Origin: Raja brachyura
Taxonomy: Eukaryota
Direction of reading: 5' to 3'
DNA length: 64,000 nt
Assembly: GCA_963514005.1 (NCBI GenBank)
Contig: OY740800.1
Coordinates: 31,000,001-31,064,000 of the forward strand
Position numbers and translations under genes: made by a program
Part shown: piece after piece, positions 4,765 to 55,753 of the stretch
Numbering within the stretch: position 1 is the stretch's first letter
Layout: every line of letters begins with the position of its first letter
The notes under the pieces: generated by a model
Told to the model about the DNA's origin: nothing
The model's database searches: none
Seen by the model: the letters and a program-made list of their open reading frames with translations, nothing else

Positions 4765-4971
4765 CTGTTATAATTGCTGGGTCCATCCAGCTACTCCCAC
4801 TCTCCCAGTTCAGGCTGGTGCTGTTGGCTGAGGTTGTTGCTGCATGGTTCACTGAAGAGCAGGAAGCAGCATTTGGTAGTCCCCCAAAATTGATGTTAAT
4901 ATTTGGTAACAGTGCCCGTAGACCATCCTGCCACTCTTTCACATTTAAACTTGCCACATTACTGCCGCTGT
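4765..4971 (-). CDS. CNOT4: CNOT4 penultimate-type exon (DSGSNVASLNVKEWQDGLRALLPNININFGGLPN...WMDPAIIT)
   Basis: 207 nt. Long U-rich tract ending tttcag|AC, donor CAG|gtgagg. Phase 1 to 1. Carries the conserved KEWQDGLRALLPNININFG and DPAII motifs. Confidence 0.96.
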
Positions 4972-5946: not shown

Positions 5947-6084
5947 CGGGTGGGAGAATGCAACCTTCACGTGGTCTGCCCTGTTTCAACGAATGCAATC
6001 AACCTGGCGTGCACAATCAAATAGAACAAGTTCTCCTACAACTTTAGGCTGTGCACGCCATACGCAAGAAGAAGAAGAAGAAAA
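5947..6084 (+). mobile_element. Short non-LTR retroposon 3' end with (GAA)n tail and 12-bp TSD
   Basis: Perfect TSD AGTTAGTGTTCT at 5935-5946 and 6085-6096. Ends ccatacgc(aag)5. Confidence 0.85.
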
Positions 6085-7083
6085 AGTTAGTGTTCTGGAG
6101 CAGTGATCGAAAGACACAATTTGAATAGAACGGCAACGGCACTTAAAATCAATTAATTTAATTTAGAAGCTCATCTCAGTAAACAAGCTATGTGACTACT
6201 GCATTGTCATAAAATGTTGTAAGCAGGGGAAGCCATTCCACAGGTCCACCAATGTAGTTGACGCAGCTCAAGGGCAATTAGTGATGGACATTAACTGTCA
6301 GTATTGCCACATTCACATTCTGGGAACAAATAAATCCTCACTAATTCTACACACAGGTCAGAACTCAATTGGTGATTGTGAGGTGAGGACGTTAATTAAT
6401 TGCTTAACACATTTGATTGGTTGAAAATGAACAAAATCAAGAAAGGTAGGAGATCCACTAAAAGCATGAATAAGATGGACCAAAGGGGCTCGTCTCCATG
6501 CTGTAAAGATCTGTGATCTATCCTTTTTGGCAGCTACAACAACTCCAATTATTAATGCAGATCAAGATGCGCAGTATCCCATGGTGAAAACATAACTATT
6601 CTGCTGTGAGAAATGCAGTTATAGGAACCTACACATCTGACACCAGAAATAATATTTTCGGAAACAAAGTTCTCACAAATAACCTAATAATGTCCACCTA
6701 ATAGGAAATCCGATGTGTACGGACCTCGTGATGGCTCGGCCCCACCGTAATTAACACCCATGAAAATTCTTGTCTTTTCCACCAGAAAGTTAAGGTAGAC
6801 TTGATGCGAACAACAAGTGCAGGAACCAATTGCTTGTAAAATAATGGTGTTCTTAGAGTAGAAACACACATATTTCAAGAGGCTGGGGATGGGTGGGAAA
6901 TAAACGGATGCTTCGCCATCTGAAGACAAAGGTATTTTCAAAACAATGAATAAGTATCCAATAATAAAATACAGCTGATGGGCAAAAGGAAGGTAATTCA
7001 GCTGGGACAGAGAAGCAGGCAGTGCTAGATGGAAGGGATACTTGGAAGATTTCCACAACTGAGGCTATTATGAATATCCCCAA

Positions 7084-8282
7084 CTTCCATATAAATCCTG
7101 TCATGGAGATCCGGCATGCTTGGTGCTTTTCTGAATGCTGCAACTCCATTTGGGGCATCATGGGTGCTCCAAATGTAGGAGCAGAGAGTTGATGGTCATT
7201 ACAGTTAATCAAAGCCAATGGGAAGCCTGGGCAAAAAGAGAATGCTTATTCCATCTATCAAGTACATAAAGTATTTTCATAAAATAAAAATGCAAACTCA
7301 GGCGAAAACATTGTCAATTGAGATGGATTATGAAGAATCCTTATCAAGTTTGGTTATCTCCAAAGGTTCATGAGCGTCCAATTTTTGCAACATGACGACT
7401 TGTTAATCATGATCCCAAACCACAGATATATCAGAGTGCACGATGGCTATGCCGGTCGCACCAATCCTCTTCTTGACGTTTGTTGCGATATTGCACCTTA
7501 CCTTTCACAAGCTTCCTGCTGGGGTAGAGCTAATTTAAAAGTTGAACAGGAAAATGTTCAAGCTTCATCTCGACTTCAGCACCAGGTACACCTCAGTCAG
7601 AGTTACAGTATACAATGCTTGTATGTATGTACACATTAAATGGCATGATATGGTGGACTTGTTCGCTGATCCTGACAAGAGAATGGGGGTTACACAAAGA
7701 TAGAAAGATCCTTACCACCCTGCATATATCTTACAACATCATCCCTTCTCTCCAACAACCTCCACCTTTAAAGAAACTCTGGAAAACGTGCATCACTTTC
7801 CATACCTTGAGAGCCATTTCACAGATAAGGCAGATATTGCGAAATGCACTTCAGCCAAATGAGGAAAAATATAATCGGAAACAAAGCCCTTAATCCCAGC
7901 ATTGTCTACTAAACAATGATTACTGCTATGTGGTAAACTTTGAACAATCTGCTGTTGGAATTACAAAGAGGTATCACCCTTGACTTCACAATATCTTCTA
8001 AATCCATTATCAGAGAGGTCAAGATCAAAACCTTGACCCAGGCCAATACAAAGATCTTGACTGTACTTTACCAGCTCTGCCAGATATCAGAAACTAGCAC
8101 TCTTCACCAAGCTCCATCACTCCAATATTCCACAAGAGCAGAGAGAACAAGTATACTCTCAAAATGTCTGAATAACTGTAATGGTCATGAATTCCCTGCT
8201 CTCATGGCGCCCCAAATGGAGTAGCAGCAGTCAGAAAAGCACCAAGCATGCCAGATATCCATGACAGGAGCTACATGGAAAT
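7084..8282. repeat. Long-range inverted repeat (arms about 7084-7211 and 8169-8282)
   Basis: Reverse complement of the left arm (tgattaactgtaatgaccatc...ccccaaatggagttgcagcattcagaaaagcaccaagcatgccggatctccatgacagga) aligns with the right arm (tgaataactgtaatggtcatg...ccccaaatggagtagcagcagtcagaaaagcaccaagcatgccagatatccatgacagga). Confidence 0.92.
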
Positions 8283-8374
8283 TATGAGGAAAGGCAGCAA
8301 ACAACATTTGATACAATCCACTTGGCCCATCATGTCACTTAACCCACCTACAGCAGGATTCTTAACTGTACGTT

Positions 8375-8528
8375 AGGTTGGTTTAGAGAAACTGCACAGA
8401 AACAGGCCCTTCAGCCCAACCGAGTCTGCTCCAACCAACGATTCCCACACACTAACATTATCCTACAACACTAGGGACAATTTACATTTATACCAAGCCA
8501 ATTAACCTACAAACCTGTACGTCTTTAG
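8375..8528 (-). mobile_element. HE1/V-SINE 3' part
   Basis: aaacaggcccttcagccc...ctagggacaattt...attaacctacaaacctgtacgtcttt is the reverse of the V-SINE body seen at 23770. Confidence 0.75.
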
Positions 8529-8854
8529 AGTACAGTCATACTCCTCAGTCATCTCAGAATTTACAGAAAGTATGCAATCTTTCTCCAGAAATCATTTGAC
8601 TACTTACTTCATTTTTAAATTAGTGGATGATTTCAGCTTGTCTGAATTTTTAACCATTTTATTTTCTAAAAACAATACACAGATCCTTGAGGAAGGAATC
8701 TTCAATGCTGCAGGTCAATTGCTTTTAGTTGGTTGAAAAGTCTTCCTTCTGTCTCCTCCCCCCCACCCACCCTAACTGTCCATAGCCCCAACCCTCCCCC
8801 CCCAATCCTTATCACTCAATACTAATTCAATCTTCATTTCAGAATCCATAAATT

Positions 8855-26996: not shown

Positions 26997-27494
26997 CTGA
27001 TATAGGAATTCCACCAAGTCCTGTGTTGTGCGGTGGTATATTTAAGTCCAAGAAATTACTGTTCGAGGTGGGCGTTGCTGTGTGGTTCAAGTGCATCATG
27101 CTATTATGGGGGTATGCCATCCATGGGTACCGTGCCTGACCTGGAAAACTGAACGAATTGTAGACGGCTCTGTGCTGAAAAGCTGGGAACCTCCGCGGTA
27201 ATACAGAGTTGGGAAAAGAGTTGCCAATGGAATTGGCTGTATTGGCAGAACCTGGTGTCAAGAAGCCACCAATGCCTTTGTTTGCAGTCTGCGATGGGGT
27301 CTGTAGTGCGCTGGGGGAATTGAGGCCCACGTTGGAAGGTTGGTCCTGGACTGAGAGTTCCTTCTCTATCAGGTCTGCTAAGGCTTTCCTGGTGATGTCG
27401 AACGGGTCAAAACCCAGGTCATCCTCTTGCTGTTTGGAGGAGCCAAACCCAAAAGCTGCTTGCCAGTCCGTTGATGAAGATACGGGGATTGTTT
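26997..27494 (-). CDS. CNOT4: CNOT4 exon containing the CAF40/CNOT9-binding motif (ETIPVSSSTDWQAAFGFGSSKQQEDDLGFDPFDITRKALADLIEKEL...NTGLGGIPIS)
   Basis: 498 nt. Acceptor aattccag|AA, donor CAG|gtaggt. Phase 1 to 1. The EDDLGFDPFD.TRKALADLIEKEL motif is at about 27355-27426. Confidence 0.97.
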
Positions 27495-28337: not shown

Positions 28338-31300
28338 CAGCGCCCTTCATAATGCTTGGGACAAAGACCCGCCATTTATTTATTTGCTTCTGTACTCCAC
28401 AATTTGTAATATTAAAAAATCACATGTGGTTAAAGTACACATTGTGAGATTTTAATAAAGGCCATTTTTATACATTTTGGTTTCACCATGTAGAAATTCC
28501 AGCAGTGTTTATCCATAGTTCCCCCCATTTCAGGGCCTTTTTGAGACACAGCAATGTCATGTAAATGAAAGTAGTCATGTTTAGTATTTTGTTGCATATC
28601 CTTTGCATGCTTTAAGTCTGAGATTCATGGACATCACCAGTTGCTAGGTGTCTTCTCTGGTGATGCTCTGCCAAGCCTGTATTGCAGCCATCTTTAGTTT
28701 ATGCTTGTTTTGGCAGTTTTCTCTTTTTACTGCATCTGCCATGCATTTGCCCACTCACCTAGCCTATCCAAGTCACCTTGCAGCCTCCTAGCATCCTCCT
28801 CACACCTAACATAACCCCCAGCTTAGTGTCATCCGCAAACTTGGAGATGTTGCATTCAATTCCCTCGTCCAAATCATGAATACATATTGTAAATAGCTGG
28901 GGTCCCAGCACTGAGCCTTGCGGTACCCCACTAGTCACTGCCTGCCATTCTGAAAAGGACCCGTTTACTCCTACCCTTTGCCTCCTGTCTGCTAGCCAGT
29001 TCTCTATCCACATCAATACTGAACCCCCAATACCGTGTGCTTTAAGTTTGCATACTAATCTCTTATGTGGGACCTTGTCGAAAGTCCAGATATAACACAT
29101 CCACTGGTTCTCCGTTATCCACTCTACTAGTTACATCCTTGAAAAATTCTATAAGATTCGTCAGACATGATTTACCTTTCGTAAATCCATGCTGACTTTG
29201 TCCAATAATTTCACCACTTTCCAAATGTGCTGCTACCCCATCTTTAATAACTGACTCTAGCAGTTTCCCCACTACCGACGTTAGACTAACTGGTATGTAA
29301 TTCCCCGTTTTCTCTCTCCGTCCTTTTTTAAAAAGTGGGGTTACATTAGCCACCCTCCAATCCTCAGGAACTACTCCAGAATCTAAGGAGTTTTGAAAAA
29401 TTATCACGAATGCATCCACTATTTCTGTGGCTACTTCCTTGAGTACTCTGGGGTGCAGACTATCTGACCCTGGGGATTTATCGGCTTTTAATCCGTTCAA
29501 TTTACCCAACATCACTTCCCGGCTAACCTGGATTTCACTCAGTTCCTCCATTTTATTTGACCCTCAGTCCCCTGCTATTTCCGGCAGATTATTTATGTCT
29601 TCCTTAGTGATGACAGAACCAAAGTAGTTATTCAATTGGTCTGCCATGCCCTTGTTCCCCATGATCAATTCACCTGTTTCTGACTGCAAGGGACCTACAT
29701 TTGTTTTAACTAATCTCTTTCTCTTCACATATCTATAAAAACGTTTGCCGTCAGTTTTTATGTTCCAGCCAGTTTTCTTTCATAATCTATTTTCCCTTTC
29801 CCAATTAAGCCATTTGTCCTCCTCTGCTGGACTCTGAATTTCTCCCAGTCCTCTGGTAGGCTGCCTTTTCTGGCTAATTTGTATGCTTTATCTTTTGTTT
29901 TTATACTATCCCTGATTTCCCTTGTTATCCATGGATGCACTACCTTCCCTGAATTATTCTTTTGCCAAACTGGGATGAACAATTTTTGTAGTTCATCCAT
30001 GCAGTCTTTAAATACGTTCCATTGCACATCCACTGTCAACCCTTTAAGAATCACTTGCCAGTCTATCTTGGCCAATTCATCTCATTCCTTCAAAGTTACC
30101 TTTGTTTAAGTTCAGAACCCTTGTTTCTGACTTAATTATGTCACTCTCCATACTAATGAAGAACTCGACCATATTATGGTCACTCTTGCCCAAGGGGCCA
30201 CGCACAACAAGACCGCTAACTAACCCTTCCTCATTACCCAATACCCAGTCTAGAATAGCCTGCTCTCTCGTTGGTTCCGCTACATGTTGTTTTAGAACCC
30301 TATCCCGCATACATTCCAAGAAATCTTCTTCCTCAGCACCCCTGCCCATTTGATTCACCCAATCTATATGTAGATTGGGTGAATCTACTGAAACATTATA
30401 ACTGTTTTACCCTTGTTGCACGCATTTGTAATTTCCTGTTTGATGCCATTCCCAACTCCACTACTACTGTTAGGTGGCCTGTACATAACTCCCACTAGCG
30501 TTTTCTGCCCCTTAGAGCTTCGCAGCTGTACCCATTGACTTGGCCACTCAAGAAATGACATTTTTTTAGCTTTGAAAAACTCCTTTGTTGCTTTAACAGT
30601 ATGTTTGGGATCATTGTCTTGCTGTAGAATGAACCACCGGCCAATTAGTTTTGAGGCATTTGTTTGAACTTGAGCAGATAGGATGTGTCTATACACTTCA
30701 GAATGCATTATGTTACTACCATCAGCAGTTGTATCATCAATGAAGATAAGTGAGCCAGTACCTTTAACAGCCATACATGCCTAGGCCATAACACCCCCAC
30801 CACTGTGTTTCACACATGAGGTGGTATGCTTTGGATCTTGGGCAGTTCCTTCTCTCCTCCATACATTGCTCTTGCCATCACTCGGATATGTTAATCTTTG
30901 TCTCATCTGTCCACAAGACCTTTTTCCAGAACTGAGGTTGATCTTTTAAGTACTTTTTGGCAAACTGTAACCTGACCATCCTATTTTTGCGGCTAACCAA
31001 CGGTTTGCATCTTGCAGTGTAGCCTCTGTATTTCTGTCCATGAAATCTTCTGCGGACAGTGGTGATCCACACCCGACTCCTGAAGAGTGTTTCTGATCTG
31101 TCGGACATGTGTTTGGGGAATTGTCTTTATTATAGAGAATTTTTCTGTTGTCAGCTGCGGAGGTCTTCCTTGGCAAGCCAGTCCCTTTGCTATTAGTAAG
31201 CTCACCAGTGTTCTCTTTCTTTTTAATGATGTTCCAAACAGTTGATTTTGGTAAGCCTAAGGTTTGGCTGATGTTTCTAACTGTTTTATTCTTGTTTCTC

Positions 31301-31738
31301 AATCTCATAATGGCTTATTTGACTTTCATTGGCACAACCTTGGTCCTCATGTTGATAAACAACAATAAAAGTGTCCAAAGGTGATAGAAAGACTGGAGGA
31401 AAGACTAGGTGCTGAGCGCTCTTTTACACCTACATTAAGGAGGCATTTAAACACACCTGAGTAATTACAGACGCCTGTGAAGTCATGTGTCCCGAACATT
31501 ATGGTGCCCTGAAATTGGGGGGGGGGGGGGGGGGGGAGGACGACGACGACTATGTATAAACACAGCTGTAATTTCTACATGGTGAAACCAAAATGTGCAA
31601 AAATACCCTTTAATGAAATCTGACAATGTGCACTTTAACCAAATATGATTTTTTTTTAAATTACAAATCCCAATTATGGAGTACAGAGGCAAATAAATAA
31701 ATGATGGGCCTTTGTCCCAAACATTATGGAGGGCACTG
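28338..31738 (-). mobile_element. Tc1-like transposon copy 1 (IR/DR type, defective), carrying an internal CR1 fragment
   Basis: TIRs CAG(C/T)GCCCT(T/C)CATAATG of roughly 200 bp or more, TA duplications at 28336-37 and 31739-40. Transposase remnants run from ATG 31350 (HTH, G.PRKT, VLWTDETKI, QQDNDPKH) with frameshifts. Confidence 0.95.
28729..30534 (-). mobile_element. Internal CR1 ORF2 fragment (APE endonuclease part through RT)
   Basis: ORFs 30077, 29758, 29063 and 28759 carry [45 protein letters not shown] and KFADDTKL. Confidence 0.95.
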
Positions 31739-32009
31739 TATGACAACAGAAAGCTGGCAGCTCTTGGCAAGACATGGGATTGGAGTTTCACATAAGCAAT
31801 TATCTCCACTGGTATCAGCTTTGTCAGAATGCTGTACATTTTAAGGCAAATATGATAACCTTTAATAGATGTGTCATTCATTCAATATAAACACATGACA
31901 ATGTTTTAATTAGATTATCTAAGGTGCAGCACCTCTTGACATGTTTTGTGAGTGGTCGGGGCACTCATAGGCATCAGGTGCAATGTAAAAGATACAATAT
32001 ATAAGTAAC

Positions 32010-35419: not shown

Positions 35420-38140
35420 AGGGTTCCTACACATTACAAAAGTATGGATAATGGGAAGGAGAGGATACTGAAGACTCCAGAATACAAAATGAGACAGGAA
35501 GTTAAGAAAGGGACAAGAGTCTAAAATTAAGCAACATGGGGATCAATTTGAGAAGAGGGGCAATGAAAACAAAATTAATATTTGAATGCACGCTGTATAC
35601 GAAACAAGGTGGATGAGACATAGCAAAATTCAAAATTGGCAGGTATGATATTGTGAGCATCAGAGTCGTGTCTGAAAGAGGATCAAATCTGGAGGCTGCA
35701 CATCAAACGAGATGCATCCTATCGAAAAGACAGGCAGGTGGGCTGAGAGTGTGGGGTGGTTCTGTTGGCAAAGAAGGATGTCCAATCCTTAGCAAGAATT
35801 GACAGGATTGGATGATGTGCAATGCTTTTGGGTAAAGTTAGATATTTGGCCTCCAAATATTGCCCAGGATGTAGCAGACAAATTACATCAGGAGATAGAA
35901 GATTTTAGATTTGGTGTTCTGCAGGGGTCAGTGCTGGGTCTGCTACTGTGCCCTCCATAATGTATGGGACATAGTTTATTTATTTGCCTCCGTACTCCCC
36001 AATTTGAGATTTGTAATAGGAAAAAAAATCACATGTGGTTAAAGTGTACATTATCAGATTTTAATAAAGGCCATTTCTATACATTTTGGTTGTACCATGT
36101 CGAAATTACAGCTGTGTTTATACATAGTTCCCCTCATTTCAGGGCAACATAATGTTTGGGACACATGACTTCACAGGCATTTGTAATTGCTCAGGTGTGT
36201 TTTATTGCCTCCTTAATACAGGAAAAAGAGAGCAGTCAGCACCTAGTCTTTCCTCCAGTCTTTGCATCACCTTTGGAAGCTTTTATTGCTGCTATCAACA
36301 TGAGGCCCAAAGTGTACCAAGGAAAGTCAAAGAAGCCATTATGAGATTGAGAACCAAGAATAAAACTGTTAGAGACATTAGCCAAACCTTAGGCTTACCA
36401 ATATCAACTGTTTGGAACATTAAGAAGAAAGAGAGCACTGGTGAGCTTACTAATCGCAAAGGGACTGGCAGGCCAAGGAAAGCCTCCACAGCTGACGACA
36501 GAAGAATTCTCTCTATAATTAAGACAAATCCCTGAACACGTGTTCGACATCAGAAACACTCTTCAGGTGTGGATTTGTCAATGACCACTGTCTGCAGAAG
36601 ATTTCATGAACAGAAATACAGAGGATACATGGCAAGATGCAAGCCACTGGTTAACCACAAAAGTAGGATGGCCAGCTTACAGCTTGCCAAAAAGTACTTA
36701 AAAGATCAACCACAGTTCTGGAAAGAGGTCTTGTGGACAGACGAGACGAAGATTAACTTATATCAGAGTGATGGCAAGAGTAATGTACGGAGAGAAGGAA
36801 CTGCCCAAGATCCAAAGCATACCGCTTCATCTGTGAAACACGGTGGTGGGTACCTTATGGCCTGGGCATGTATGGCTGCTGAAGGTACTGGCTCATTTAT
36901 CTTCATTGATGATATAAGTGCTGATGGTAGTAGCATAATGAATTCTGAAGTGTAGACATATCCTATCTGCTCAAATTCAAACAAATGCCTCAAAACTTAT
37001 CAGCCGGTGGTTCGTTCTACAGCAAGACAATGATCCCAAACATACTACTAAAGCAACAAAGGAGTTTTTCAAAGCTAATAAATGGTCAATTCTTGAGTGG
37101 CCAAGTTAATCATCCAAATGCTGATGAGAAAACTGAAGGGGACTAGCTCCCCAAACAAGTATAAGCTAAAGATGGTGCCCTGAGACACAGAGGCAAATAA
37201 ATAAATGATGGGTCTTTGTCCCAAACATCATGGAGGGCACTGTATGTTTTAATGTTGTATGTTAATGATACGGATGATGAAATTGATGGCTTTGTGGCCG
37301 GGTATGTGGACGATACGAAGATAGGTGGAAGGGTAGGTAGTGCTGAGGAAGCAAGGAGTCTGCAGAAGGACTTGGATAGGTTGGGATAGTGGGCAATTAA
37401 AAGGCAAATGAAATACAGCATAGCAAAGTGTATGGCCATGCACACTGGTAGAAGGAATACGGGTGTGGACTGTTTTCTAAATGGGGAGAGGATATAGAAA
37501 TTGGAGGGGCAAAGGCATTTGGGATGCTGATGCATGATTCCCAAAAGATTAATTTGCGGGTTGAGATAGAATGAAAGGCAAATCCAATGTTGGTATTCAT
37601 TATAGAGGACTAGAAAATAAAAGCAAGGGTGTATTGCTGAAGCTTTATAAGGAGTTAGCCAGACCACATTTGGACTATTACGAGCAGTTTTCGGCCCCAT
37701 ATGTGAGGAAGGATGCACTGGCGTAGCAGAGGACCAGAGACTTAGGAGAATTATCCCAGAGATGGTTAGGTTAAAGTACGAGAAGTGTTTGATGGCTCTG
37801 GGCCGAAGGATGGGGGGAATCTTGTGAAACCTACCAAATAATGAAAGGTCTAAATAAACTGGATTTGGACAATGTTTCCAGTAGCAGGAAAGTCTGGGAG
37901 CAGAGGCACAGCCTCAGAATAAAAGGACACACCTTTAGATTGGACTTGAGGATGAATTTTGTCAGTGTGGTGAATCTGTGCAAGGCCAAGTCCATGGGTA
38001 TTTTTAAAGTCAAGATTGATAGGTTCTTGATTCGTATGGGCGTCAAAGGTTATGGGAGAGCGGAGTTGAGAAGGAAATATAGATCAGCCATGATCAATGG
38101 GGAGCAGACTTGATGGGCCGAAAAGCATAATTCTGCTTCC
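35420..38140 (+). mobile_element. CR1 LINE pieces split by Tc1 copy 2
   Basis: GV.QGSVLG sequence (35911-35943) continues after 37244 into LYVND...DDTKIGG and on to the CR1 3' UTR. Confidence 0.85.
35946..37242 (+). mobile_element. Tc1-like transposon copy 2 (internally deleted)
   Basis: TA|CTGTGCCCTCCATAATG...CATCATGGAGGGCACTG|TA. ORFs 36152 and 36569 encode HTH, GRPRK, WTDETKINLY and VKHGGG. Inner DR is near 36141-36164. Confidence 0.95.
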
Positions 38141-43789: not shown

Positions 43790-44815
43790 TACAGATCAGA
43801 AACACTCTTCAGGAGTCAGGTGTGGATTTGACCGCTGTCTGCAGAGGACTTCATGAACAGAAATACAGAGGCTACACTGCAAGATGCAAACTACTGGTTA
43901 ACCACAAAATTGGGATGGCCAAGTTATAATTCGCCAAGAAATGCTTAAAAGGGTAACCACAGTTCTGGAAAAAGGTCGTGTGGACAGATGAGACGAAGAA
44001 TAACTTATATCAGAGTGATGGCAAGAGCAAAATATGGAGTAGAGAAGGAACTGCTCAAGATCCAAAGCATACCACCTCATCTGTGAAACAGTGGTGGGGG
44101 TGTTATGGCCTAGGCATGTTAGCTGCTGAACGGACTGCTCACTTCATTGATGATACAACTGCTGATGGTGTAATGAATTCTGAAGTGTAGACACATCCTA
44201 TCTGCTCAAGTTCAAACAAATGCCTCAAAACTCATCGGCCGGCGGTTCGTTCTACAGCAAGACAATGATCCAAAACATTGATCCCAAACATTCCATAAAG
44301 CAACAAAGGAGTTTGTCGAAGCTAAAAAATGGTAAATTCTTGAGTGGCCAAGTCAATCACCCGATCTGAACCCAATTGAGCATGCCTTTTATCTGCTGAA
44401 GAGAAACTGAAGGGGACTAGCCCCCAAAACAAGCCAAGCTAAAGATGTCTGCAATACTGGCCTGGCAGAGCATCACCAGAGAAGGCACCCAGCAACTAGA
44501 TGTCAATGAATCGTAGACTTCAAGCAGTCATTGCATGCAAAGGATATGCAGCAAAATACTAAACATGACTACTTTCATTACATGACATTGCTGTGTCCGA
44601 AACATTATGGTGTCCTGAAATGGGGGGACAATGTATAAACACTGCTGTCATTTCTACATGGTGAAACCAAAATGCATAAAAATGGCCTTTATTAAAATCT
44701 AACAAAGTGCACTTTAACCACATGTCAATTGTTCTATTACAAATCTCAAATTGCAGGGTACAGAGGCAAATAAACGAATGATGGGTCTTGGTCCCAAACA
44801 TTATGGAGGGCACTG
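43790..44815 (+). mobile_element. Tc1-like transposon copy 3 (5'-truncated, right TIR intact)
   Basis: WTDETK, QQDNDPKH and SQSPDLNPIEHA (about 44351-44386). Ends CATTATGGAGGGCACTG. Confidence 0.93.
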
Positions 44816-47801: not shown

Positions 47802-49506
47802 CTGCAAAACAAACAAATTGCGACAAGTTGATCATTTGATCTCAGTTGTCCTTGGTGTACATGTGTGGTTGGTTTCAATAGCTTCTTTAAAAGAAACAAG
47901 AAAAAAAGGGGCCAATGCTTACAGTGGACCCCACCAACACTTAAGGAAGCAAAATGACAGGTGTGGAAAAATATAAAATCAGTGGGAGTGTGTTATGCTT
48001 ATGCTCTTTAAACAAGTTAAAACAGCAATAAACAACCAACAATGTGCCTGACTCATCTGTAATTTGGTTTGTAAAGTGCGAAAGTTGATAAATGGCATAA
48101 AGAGGAAAAGATTCCAGCAGCACCGTGCACTTCAGGTATCTGATTTTGTTTGAATTTTACTTTAATTACTTAACAATTGGCACTTGATACATTTTGTTTA
48201 AGGTAAATAAATAGTGTGTCACTGATCATACCAAGCAAGCTGCAAGACTTGGATAGATGGAGACTGACCGGCTTTAATTCAAGTTTATTTATTGAAGAAT
48301 TCATCCACATCCTTGAAGAATTCATGCAGGTTTTGTTCCTTTTCACACAAGTGATGACCAACACAAAATAAATCTAATTAAACTAGAATCTGAGGCTTCA
48401 CTGAATATTCAGATAGTTACACCATATTTATTCTTCCTCTGCTTGCAGATGGAAGCATTTACATCTTTTACTGACAATAGAAATCATGATATTGGATCAT
48501 TTCAATTCCATTCTCTATGATCAATACATTGATCGTTCAAGATTTCAAGAGGGGTTATTTGTCATGTGCATATATGTCATATCAACCAGAACAATGCAGC
48601 AGTTCTGTAGGTGCATTAGATGCAACAACTATTTCTAAACAATAGGACAAAAACCCAATGTGAATCAACCATGTTAGTGCAAAGTCCACAGCGGCTCACT
48701 GGTGGGATAAGGTTATGTGAAGTATTCAAAGCTCTGTTCACAGATTATGCTGTCTAAAAGGAACGGTACATAAATGCACAATAAACAGGGTTTGTGAACA
48801 CAAAACAACATATTCTTTGCAACTTTGGGAGCAAAATCCAAAACGAGGATGAGTGCAGGTGGGGAGAGGGGGACATCAAAAGGCATGCAGTCTCAATGGA
48901 TGAGTGAAAATTGTTTCAGGAGACTTCCGTTTTTCCATTGAGCTCATGAGCTATAGGTCCAAAGACACTGCCAGCTCTTCGCACCTCAATTAGATGGCTA
49001 CTTTTCAAGTGGAAAATGTGTTTTGGAGACTATCACGGAGTGCCACAGTGGCCCCATCCAAAATACTGTTCTTGGTCAATATTCAAATATGAACTACATA
49101 GTAGGTGCGACTTCCTGGCTCCAAGAAACTGGAGAGAATTGATAGTTGGCCAGATTTGCTGCGATATCAGCCAAGAATGAAACCCAAGACATTCAAATTA
49201 GTGTAGCTTTCTCGCATAACCAACGAGCGATCGAGAAAATCTAATGTTTGGCAGAGAATCCTTCCTCGTCAGAAGAAGGTGGCATTTTTATCTGACAATA
49301 TGTTGTTGGGAGTTCAAAATGATTCAGACTTGATGTTAAAAGTTACACGTTATAGGAACAAGTCGTGAGAAAACAGATTATGACTCTTTGATTAACGTTC
49401 TCCCAAACATATGCAGCACACAAAGCTGATTTGAACTCGTGGACTACTGGGCCTTGTCAAACAAAAATGATTATGTTGACCCTCCATCATTCTGTAACAA
49501 AATGTA

Positions 49507-50086
49507 CACTGTCTAATCTTCCTGAAGACTTTTGAACTTGTCCGGAAATTAAAAATACTTCCATAAGCACTTGGCAAGCATTTAGGATATCCAGTTTGTA
49601 TGTGCATGTTGGTCTGGTGAGAAAAAAACATTTACAATGTTAAGCCTGATTTCTGAAAGGTTATGATTATAAACCCAAAGGTACTATGTACTTCACTTCT
49701 CCCTCCTTCTTCCTGGCATAGACTACATGTTCTCCTGCAGTTCAATAATGGATGAATTGAATCCCCCATTGTGGCTATTGTCACGTAACTGGCTGGTAAG
49801 GATACACAATGCCAACATTACATTTTTGACTGATCCCCTTTGGAAACCACTGTGAAAAGTATCTCTGTGATGCTGAAACTTATTGTTGTCAGTTTGGTAA
49901 ATGCTCAGTATTTCTGCCGTTCTTCCTCCTTGCAGACCCTATTATAAATTAATAAAGATTTTTTCACCAGACCAACATGCACATACCAAGGAACATTACT
50001 GGACATCCTAAATACTTGCCAAGTGCTTTTGGAAGTATTTTTTATTTCAGGACAAGTTCAAAAGTCTTCAGGAAGAATACACAGTG
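49507..50086. repeat. Inverted repeat, arms of about 120 bp (49507-49628 and 49959-50086) with a spacer of about 330 bp
   Basis: Opposite-strand ORFs 49392 and 49977 translate near-identically. By eye the arms differ by about 7 substitutions and one indel of about 10 nt. Confidence 0.95.
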
Positions 50087-50329
50087 TTTCTGGTTTTCAA
50101 TCGAACAAACAAGAGTCCTGGTTGATGAATGTCACAGAATAGGTCCCGCGAAACAATATTCACCCGTTTCATGGCGACTGTCCCCTGTTCCCTGGACATG
50201 CCAATTTAATCAGATTCACAAGGCTATTGTGGAAGATTGCACAACATGCAGAGTTATTATTTCAGGTTTAAATTTTATACCAAGACAAACACCAAATGAA
50301 CTGTATATCTCATCATGATTTAATGGATA

Positions 50330-51430
50330 GATAAAAAGAGACAAGGGGCATCGATCCATTCTCAAAGAATCAAGTAAATATTCCAAGATATGAAATTGTA
50401 AAACAAATTGATAATCTGATTAAGTTTTGCATGCATGCAGGACGCTACATAGATTTCACTGAATTAGCATTTCATTGAAATGTAAAAAAACTTAATGGGA
50501 AATCTATATATCGAGTTCTCCTTCTGTACGACCAGATAATCAACAGCAAGTCATTCGTTGGTTATTTTTTTAAATTTTTTTTGCTTATGTCATCATGTAT
50601 CAAGTTTGCTGCACACAAATTCAATACAGCATCGTAACCTTCTGCATCATAGCTGCTCTGGCCAATGCAAGAAAAATCATTCATCTCTCTTAGTGATTCA
50701 GTATTAATTTCAGGAGGGCAGAGGAAGTTTGGAATTTTCGCAACATGGCTGTCTTCATCATCAAATGTTACCATTGCTCTCAACTAATGGCCAACTGAGA
50801 AAGAGGGTGTCAAATACCATGACTCAAATCAGACACAAACTCGTGTTCTCCTTCACAGCATTGATCCAGTGCCTGCACAATCCAAAGGCATGGATTACCT
50901 GTAGAAGGCACGTATCCACGTTGAAACATTGGATATGGCCAAAGCTGTTCTAGCAAAATCCTCTAATGGCAGGATAATATTCAGCACCATCAAACCAAAA
51001 TCCTCTACATCAAGACATTGACTATACAAACAGTTCTAGCTGTTGGACCCCATTGCCGACATGCCTAAACCAGTCACTCAAAACAACCACTCTTCGCCAG
51101 GGACCAAAATGGAAATGAACCATCAGGAGGAAACAAAAATATCTTTAAGGATGTTCACAAAATTTCCTTCCAAGAGGTAATACTTTAAGCAACACATGGC
51201 AATCCCTGTCTGGTGACTCAAAATGGACTCAAAAACGTCCAGGAAAGCACCAACTTACTTTTCCATGACAAGAGTCATGCGACCAAATACAATAAATAGA
51301 AAGAGAGCACAACATTCTGAAGAGAGCCCCATCTGCTCCACCTATGAAAGAATCTGAAGATTCATCTACCTCAGAACTAGAGTGGAAACCAACCTTGACC
51401 CCGAGGGACTGCTCAAGAAGAAAAAAAAAC
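50330..51430 (+). mobile_element. Degraded RTE-like LINE 3' portion
   Basis: Ends agagtggaaacc...gaccccgagggactgctcaagaagaaa, a typical RTE-like tail. The upstream body is heavily decayed. Confidence 0.55.
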
Positions 51431-55263: not shown

Positions 55264-55753
55264 ATGGCCTGTCCCACCAGCATGTGATTGCATGCGGCTA
55301 GCGCGACCTAACGTGGTCGTTCGAACCGTATGGCCTCACGGTCCCACTTCGATCGCCGGAGGTGTATGGAGTTGTGCGGGGCTGGTCCCGACATCGCACG
55401 GGGCTCCGAAAAACTGACACTGTTCAAAAATCCCGCGCACCAACGGCCTGTTGGCCCGCAGCCGCATTGAAGACGTACGCAGCGTCTCTACGTCGTACGC
55501 AGAGTCTTGACGGCGTACGCCTAGCACGTGGCGTTTCGCGATGACGTCACCAGCCAACGCCGTGCGACGTCCAAATTCAGTCGGCCCGCCTCCTGCCCAG
55601 CTGATTGGCGAGTATGATGTCGGAACCAGCCCCGCACATCTCCATACGCCTCCGCGGTTCGAATTGGGACCATCCCCGCGAGACCGTACATTTCAAGCGA
55701 CCACGTTTGGTCGCGCTAGATGCATGCAAACGTATGCTGGTGGGACAGGCACT
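55264..55753. mobile_element. PIF/Harbinger-like MITE, GC/CpG-rich, long TIRs
   Basis: TTA|ATGGCCTGTCCCACCAGCAT...ATGCTGGTGGGACAGGCACT|TTA. TSD is TTA. Inverted arms are about 135 bp. Confidence 0.88.

Follow-up and report, generated by a model that had tools for sequence, protein, structure and literature searches.

Is a pair of long, mutually complementary sequences in an intron of a skate gene there for the sake of splicing, or does it merely record how the DNA of the intron arose? The question is raised by a 64,000-nt stretch of the Raja brachyura genome (assembly GCA_963514005.1, contig OY740800.1, positions 31,000,001 to 31,064,000 of the forward strand; hereafter the window, to which all positions refer unless another locus is named), where two inverted arms lie beside a sequence that resembles a 3' splice site. 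A preliminary description, made from the letters of the window, took the arms for an RNA duplex that gates splicing at the 3' end of CNOT4 and named an old non-autonomous transposon as the alternative.

The CNOT4 intron and its inverted arms

The 3' half of CNOT4 lies in the window, on the minus strand. Gene identity is supported: the exon at about 27.0–27.5 kb encodes protein that is 100% identical to Leucoraja erinacea records and 99% identical to those of two other skates, and the 707-aa CNOT4 isoform maps to six stretches of the window plus a last exon in a neighbouring locus (L004). The cassette exon at 4765–4971 is truly alternative: listed isoforms measure 707 aa when they include it and 638 aa when they skip it. 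The arms sit in the 22-kb intron preceding this exon, which follows about 2.25 kb downstream; isoform mapping and this distance confirm the gene, the strand and the cassette exon some 2 kb away that had been read from the sequence. Between cassette and last exon, L004 contains a candidate 21-nt micro-exon (about 6250–6272 of that locus, minus strand) with AG before it and GTATGT after it. Its peptide matches a 7-residue insert that is annotated in isoform P0027 (Narcine) and, in altered form, in P0038 (Scyliorhinus), and the micro-exon is possibly conserved across sharks and rays. The features on which the analysis turns are the following.

26997–27493 (start approximate), minus strand: CNOT4 exon upstream of the 22-kb intron
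4765–4971, minus strand: CNOT4 cassette exon of 207 nt (69 codons)
7226–7240, minus strand: acceptor-like site with pyrimidine tract and CAG/G; AG at 7228–7227, cut between 7227 and 7226
6853–7227, minus strand: open frame of 124 codons following the acceptor and keeping the phase of the upstream exon
7082–7211, minus strand: left arm, an inverted copy of the 3' part of a LINE relic, with weaker similarity to about 7256
7163–7177, no strand: 15-nt bulge in the left arm
7313–8308, plus strand: decayed non-LTR reverse-transcriptase relic, antisense to CNOT4, which occupies the spacer and extends over the right arm
8169–8283, plus strand: right arm, which lies inside the LINE relic, in its C-terminal coding part, with weaker left-arm similarity from about 8140
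8378–8531: short SINE-like repeat close by the relic on its outer side, high-copy (depth above 10^5)

The two arms (7082–7211 and 8169–8283) are separated by 957 nt. Positions 7082–7162 pair with 8283–8203, and 7178–7211 with 8202–8169, across the bulge at 7163–7177; within the bulge, 7165–7175 is the reverse complement of the adjoining 7147–7157 at 10 of 11 positions. The arms are 85% alike with two indels between them, and arm-versus-arm BLAST within the window returns E = 2e-24. On the minus (transcript) strand 98 of the 115 columns are Watson–Crick pairs, six are G–U and 11 are mismatched. Homology continues weakly on the inner side, where 7256–7237 and 8140–8159 are identical at 15 of 20 positions (p = 0.0045 with short windows and 0.06 with windows of 100 nt); the corresponding test of an outer extension gave p 0.30. 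Inversely complementary arms of about 115–130 nt, about 950 nt apart, with fainter similarity beyond them, are therefore an accurate account of the geometry.

A genome-wide BLAST for copy number, proposed in the preliminary description as a check, finds the arms to be single-copy: the left arm returned two matches, the two arms themselves, and the spacer matches itself only. The genome search skips very common words, a gap that contig depth covers; over both arms depth was flat at 80% likeness in four of four runs. By these two approaches no third arm copy at 80% likeness or above was found in the genome, and genome searches with arm and spacer, together with contig depth, revealed no multi-copy family with the same two ends. 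That the arm sequence is absent elsewhere in the window holds for close copies, but a distant homologue lies at about 51,110–51,320. The outer arm ends show no target-site duplication, in agreement with the first reading. A check for a 3' tail and target-site duplication at the relic found its ends eroded and the high-copy repeat beginning at 8378. Rfam gave no match in the window.

To gauge how common such pairs are we used a pool of 494 kb, comprising the window and 43 stretches of 10 kb, and recorded pairs of at least 60 nt lying within 3 kb. The pool contains 70 inverted pairs, of which three have no other copy in it: the CNOT4 arms at 7082/8283, a pair at 49506–50087 in the same gene, and a pair in L100. 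The second CNOT4 pair (49506–49625 and 49959–50087) is 86% alike over 129 columns, has arms about 330 nt apart and is single-copy in the genome; its predicted energy is −182 kcal/mol against −188 for the 7082/8283 arms. The L100 pair (6073–6179 and 7300–7406 of that locus) is 93% alike over 107 nt. With 70 pairs in 494 kb and a second unique pair in the gene, potential for double-stranded RNA is therefore common in CNOT4 pre-mRNA.

The window contains further elements of this kind. A low-copy inverted pair (55267–55395 and 55616–55750; 81%, four other copies in the pool) is possibly a small DNA transposon. Transposase-like relic copies at 30534–31740 and 35944–37110, in opposite orientation, and also at 43791–44357, are 85% alike over about 1,200 nt and offer potential duplexes far longer than that of the 7082/8283 arms; from their motifs we presume them to be Tc1/mariner-like. 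Reverse-transcriptase fragments of a LINE-like element of another family occupy 28759–30081 on the minus strand.

A reverse-transcriptase relic in the spacer and right arm

Frames of the spacer, used as protein queries against the genome, led to decayed reverse-transcriptase loci. One such locus falls in an abundant younger family, to which 150 of 150 scored candidates are related. L014, a member of the abundant family, retains a 526-aa frame with Pfam RVT_1 (E 9e-29), and this frame aligns in order to 7455–7838 on the plus strand (28% over 137 residues; tblastn E 5e-8). Six of six older relics tested match 7313–7853 at 60–76%. Related copies are dispersed in the genome, and by these alignments the element at 7313–8308 is heavily decayed and comes from an older family than the abundant one.

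We take the relic to be RTE-like from its diagnostic motifs. When the relic was translated across its stop codons and searched as protein, no named relative came up; a further search gave unnamed RVT_1 clusters, mostly chordate. Ten of its short frames yielded nothing credible in Pfam. Searching at the DNA level with L010 brought up an unrelated short repeat. The RTE clade is named among vertebrate non-LTR retrotransposons (PMC4350176). The skate element resembles these in having a reverse transcriptase and a C-terminal coding region in the expected order and many related copies, but differs in its decay and in the greater age of its family, and its RTE label comes from motifs, not from a tree.

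The 3' coding region of one relic, L008, was chosen by eye, and two more relics (L082 and L083) were found with it; L082 independently matches the L014 frame (E 5e-8). Among 1,276 stretches of the window scored against these three relic 3' ends, the left arm (minus strand) ranked fourth and the right arm (plus strand) fifth, the top three belonging to a second relic at 51.0–51.5 kb. This second element, likewise decayed and RTE-like, lies at about 50720–51400 of the window, on the plus strand and antisense to CNOT4, and served as a reference. Positions 7770–8308 are colinear with 50720–51316 of it (329 of 510 aligned positions, z 6.8, reached by none of 200 shuffles). The right arm alone gave z 5.2 (none of 500 shuffles), with homology crossing both arm boundaries, and the left arm a weaker match (44 of 61, p 0.028). 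Against L082 and L083 the values were p 0.006 and 0.002 for the left arm, and 0.06 and 0.034 for the right.

Other comparisons were negative. DNA profiles made from 30 younger copies and from the three relics did not report the arms, whole-locus alignments of the arms to 11 loci gave no z above 3, and the arms compared singly with L008 gave p 0.076 and 0.5, and with L014 about 0.5. Left of 7082 no retrotransposon homology was detected (best z 2.1 of 12 tests; p 0.43). On these comparisons, the signal linking the arms to retrotransposons is what one sees with an old relic: the right arm and spacer show it most strongly, and in several tests it is weak. As judged by homology, spacer and right arm form one colinear decayed reverse-transcriptase relic, and the left arm is the reverse complement of its 3' part.

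Origin of the inverted pair

The best explanation, and one that we consider fairly probable, is a decayed retrotransposon with an inverted copy of some 130–175 nt of its 3' part, a copy that was likely made locally and is likely neutral. An old LINE would have inserted in the CNOT4 intron and decayed. After insertion, a template switch during replication or repair would have copied part of the relic backwards about 1 kb away, and both arms would have drifted since, to stand 15% apart with two indels. A local inverted duplication is likely because the identity of arm to arm (85%) exceeds that of the element to other relics (60–76%). The 15-nt bulge, with its near-perfect reverse complementarity to the adjoining sequence, would fit a further short-range template switch. 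As to the 18-nt gap that holds the acceptor, pairwise and multiple alignments differ on which arm is ancestral.

Template switching is a documented source of reversed copies of nearby sequence (PMC7954356). The likeness to mutations of this type consists in a local, inverted, single-copy duplication and in a 15-nt insert that is reverse-complementary to its neighbour. The difference is one of scale and age, the copy measuring 130–175 nt, lying about 1 kb from its template and being old.

It is also conceivable, though unlikely, that the inverted piece arose at insertion, by fold-back, or as a second short insertion of the same family, with gene conversion later keeping the arms alike and the pair again non-functional. 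The inverted piece does lie close to the point where the relic becomes recognisable at its 5' end (7313), no more than about 60 nt away, and since the mutual identity of old relics varies widely (60–76%) the order of ages is not fixed. A second insertion or fold-back sits less well with the absence from the genome of a third copy at 80% or above, and with the fact that the homology of the left arm ends where arm-to-arm homology ends (the outer extension noted above, p 0.30), retrotransposon signal being absent further left.

Long inverted repeats flanking about 950 nt are also what an old non-autonomous DNA transposon, with the arms as its terminal inverted repeats, would present. To this origin we assign a very small probability: no target-site duplication is seen, there is no multi-copy family, and relic homology continues past the right arm on both sides, so that this arm is not a terminal repeat. 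A DNA transposon or MITE with terminal inverted repeats is thus largely refuted, the right arm being internal to the relic. The transposon alternative of the preliminary description was the closer of its two readings in placing the origin in a transposon, but the element is a LINE relic, part of which was likely copied locally in inverted form, and not a non-autonomous element bounded by terminal inverted repeats.

Pairing, the acceptor-like site and CNOT4 splicing

There remains the pairing itself. Transcribed into pre-mRNA, the arms are predicted to fold together as a long, imperfect duplex of −188 kcal/mol (about −190), so that the feasibility of an intronic duplex, checked by folding prediction, is supported. 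The duplex can probably form, and ADAR could edit it incidentally, as it could the many other inverted repeat pairs in the genome. The pyrimidine tract and AG at 7227–7238 had been placed in an unpaired gap of the duplex. The minimum-energy fold agrees, setting them between helices; over the ensemble, however, the AG opens only in part, and the unpaired probabilities for A and G are 0.44 and 0.08 with the partner arm, and 0.06 and 0.02 without it.

Selection for an RNA duplex should favour G–U over A–C on the transcript strand. Transitions on that strand comprise six G–U and five A–C (p 0.5), the 81-nt core helix alone five and one (p 0.11), and the arms of a close relative (organism B) six and three (p 0.25). 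Three of 230 arm positions differ between the two organisms where 3.4 are expected, a comparison of low power with one relative at a background of about 1%. Two of these three differences turn an A–C mismatch into G–C and one breaks a terminal pair; neutral change in either lineage also gives A–C to G–C differences. The proposed search for compensatory changes yielded no two-sided change against this one close relative, at a divergence (about 1%) that affords low power. The piece holding the duplex has 34 differences from organism B in 2,361 positions, compared with 166 in about 15,760 over all eight listed pieces. Within the spacer, the 494 nt at 7273–7766 contain a single difference (p 0.06 after allowing for the scan, post hoc), which may be chance. 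We detected no sign of selection on pairing, with neutrality tests that are weak at about 1% divergence.

The acceptor-like site was scored with a simple pyrimidine filter, not a trained model. It is one of five sites that pass among the 1,370 AG dinucleotides of the intron, and one of two with CAG/G, which upholds the candidate 3' splice site near the left arm as a consensus. Homologue searches gave no credible relative of the 124-aa frame that follows; its sole match, a bacterial protein made of fibronectin-III repeats, owes its score to the sum over four of them and was attributed to chance. Within 900 nt of the acceptor there is no donor better than six of nine consensus positions, and one ATTAAA, with a U-rich stretch behind it, occurs at 6162, 1,064 nt beyond the acceptor. 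Neither the intron nor the new tail is matched among the 120 CNOT4 proteins listed (575 found), lists in which transcripts degraded by nonsense-mediated decay would not appear. Most likely the acceptor at 7226 is cryptic, and either silent or rarely used.

Could the duplex have been exapted as a switch, controlling either use of the 7226 acceptor (for a poison exon or an alternative last exon) or whether the cassette exon 2.25 kb downstream is included, with ADAR editing as a possible means? A strong acceptor in a gap between helices, the in-phase 124-codon frame, the ATTAAA with its U-rich stretch and the two pair-restoring differences in organism B are what such a switch might show. There is also precedent: inverted intronic Alu pairs form edited duplexes and can shift the splicing of a nearby downstream exon (PMC2533698), and editing drops as the distance between repeats grows (PMC526178). 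We nevertheless judge the switch decidedly unlikely. Constraint or wobble bias was not detected, the acceptor is used in none of 120 isoforms, the frame has no homologue, no donor within 900 nt is better than six of nine positions, predicted accessibility of the AG changes little with the partner arm, and an equally stable unique pair lies at 49.5–50.1 kb. Regulatory gating of CNOT4 3'-end splicing, as initially put forward, is thus unsupported, given arms that are retrotransposon debris, no detected constraint or wobble bias, and an acceptor unused in the 120 isoforms.

In its working the skate pair would resemble an inverted Alu pair. In both, a single intron carries two segments derived from retroelements, oppositely oriented and about 1 kb apart, with a predicted long imperfect duplex, a cryptic acceptor adjoining one arm and an alternative exon downstream. 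The skate arms differ in being LINE coding debris, in their lesser length (115 paired columns), in being single-copy at high identity, and in not being two independent insertions of a high-copy SINE; by these marks the pair is not of the inverted-Alu class in origin.

Conserved long-range splicing duplexes and editing-site complementary sequences are intronic complementary regions near splice sites. The skate arms share this setting, but differ from conserved long-range splicing duplexes in their retrotransposon origin and in showing neither conservation above background nor a compensatory signal against one close relative. Literature searches on CNOT4 editing, isoforms, long-range structure, poison or last exons, and editing in sharks and skates turned up no paper on the arm pair, although supplementary lists of complementary regions or editing sites could include it; what came up on CNOT4 and editing treats CNOT4 as a binding protein. 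We conclude that the arm pair is a real feature of ordinary origin, and that splice gating is unsupported.

A bolder version of the exapted switch, slightly less probable again, is that the backwards copy of LINE debris created both an acceptor and the duplex that presents it. This would yield an editing-sensitive alternative last or poison exon in skates, removing the C-terminal 98–167 residues of CNOT4: exon birth in the manner of inverted Alus, from a single old LINE. The C-terminal region of CNOT4 carries contacts with the CCR4-NOT complex (PMC12746107).

The locus carries a caution: a repeat origin can underlie even a single-copy inverted pair beside a good splice site, and counting copies by nucleotide search overlooks that origin. 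If the acceptor were used, and its use depended on pairing, then this would extend the control of splicing by retroelement duplexes to cartilaginous fish and to CNOT4.
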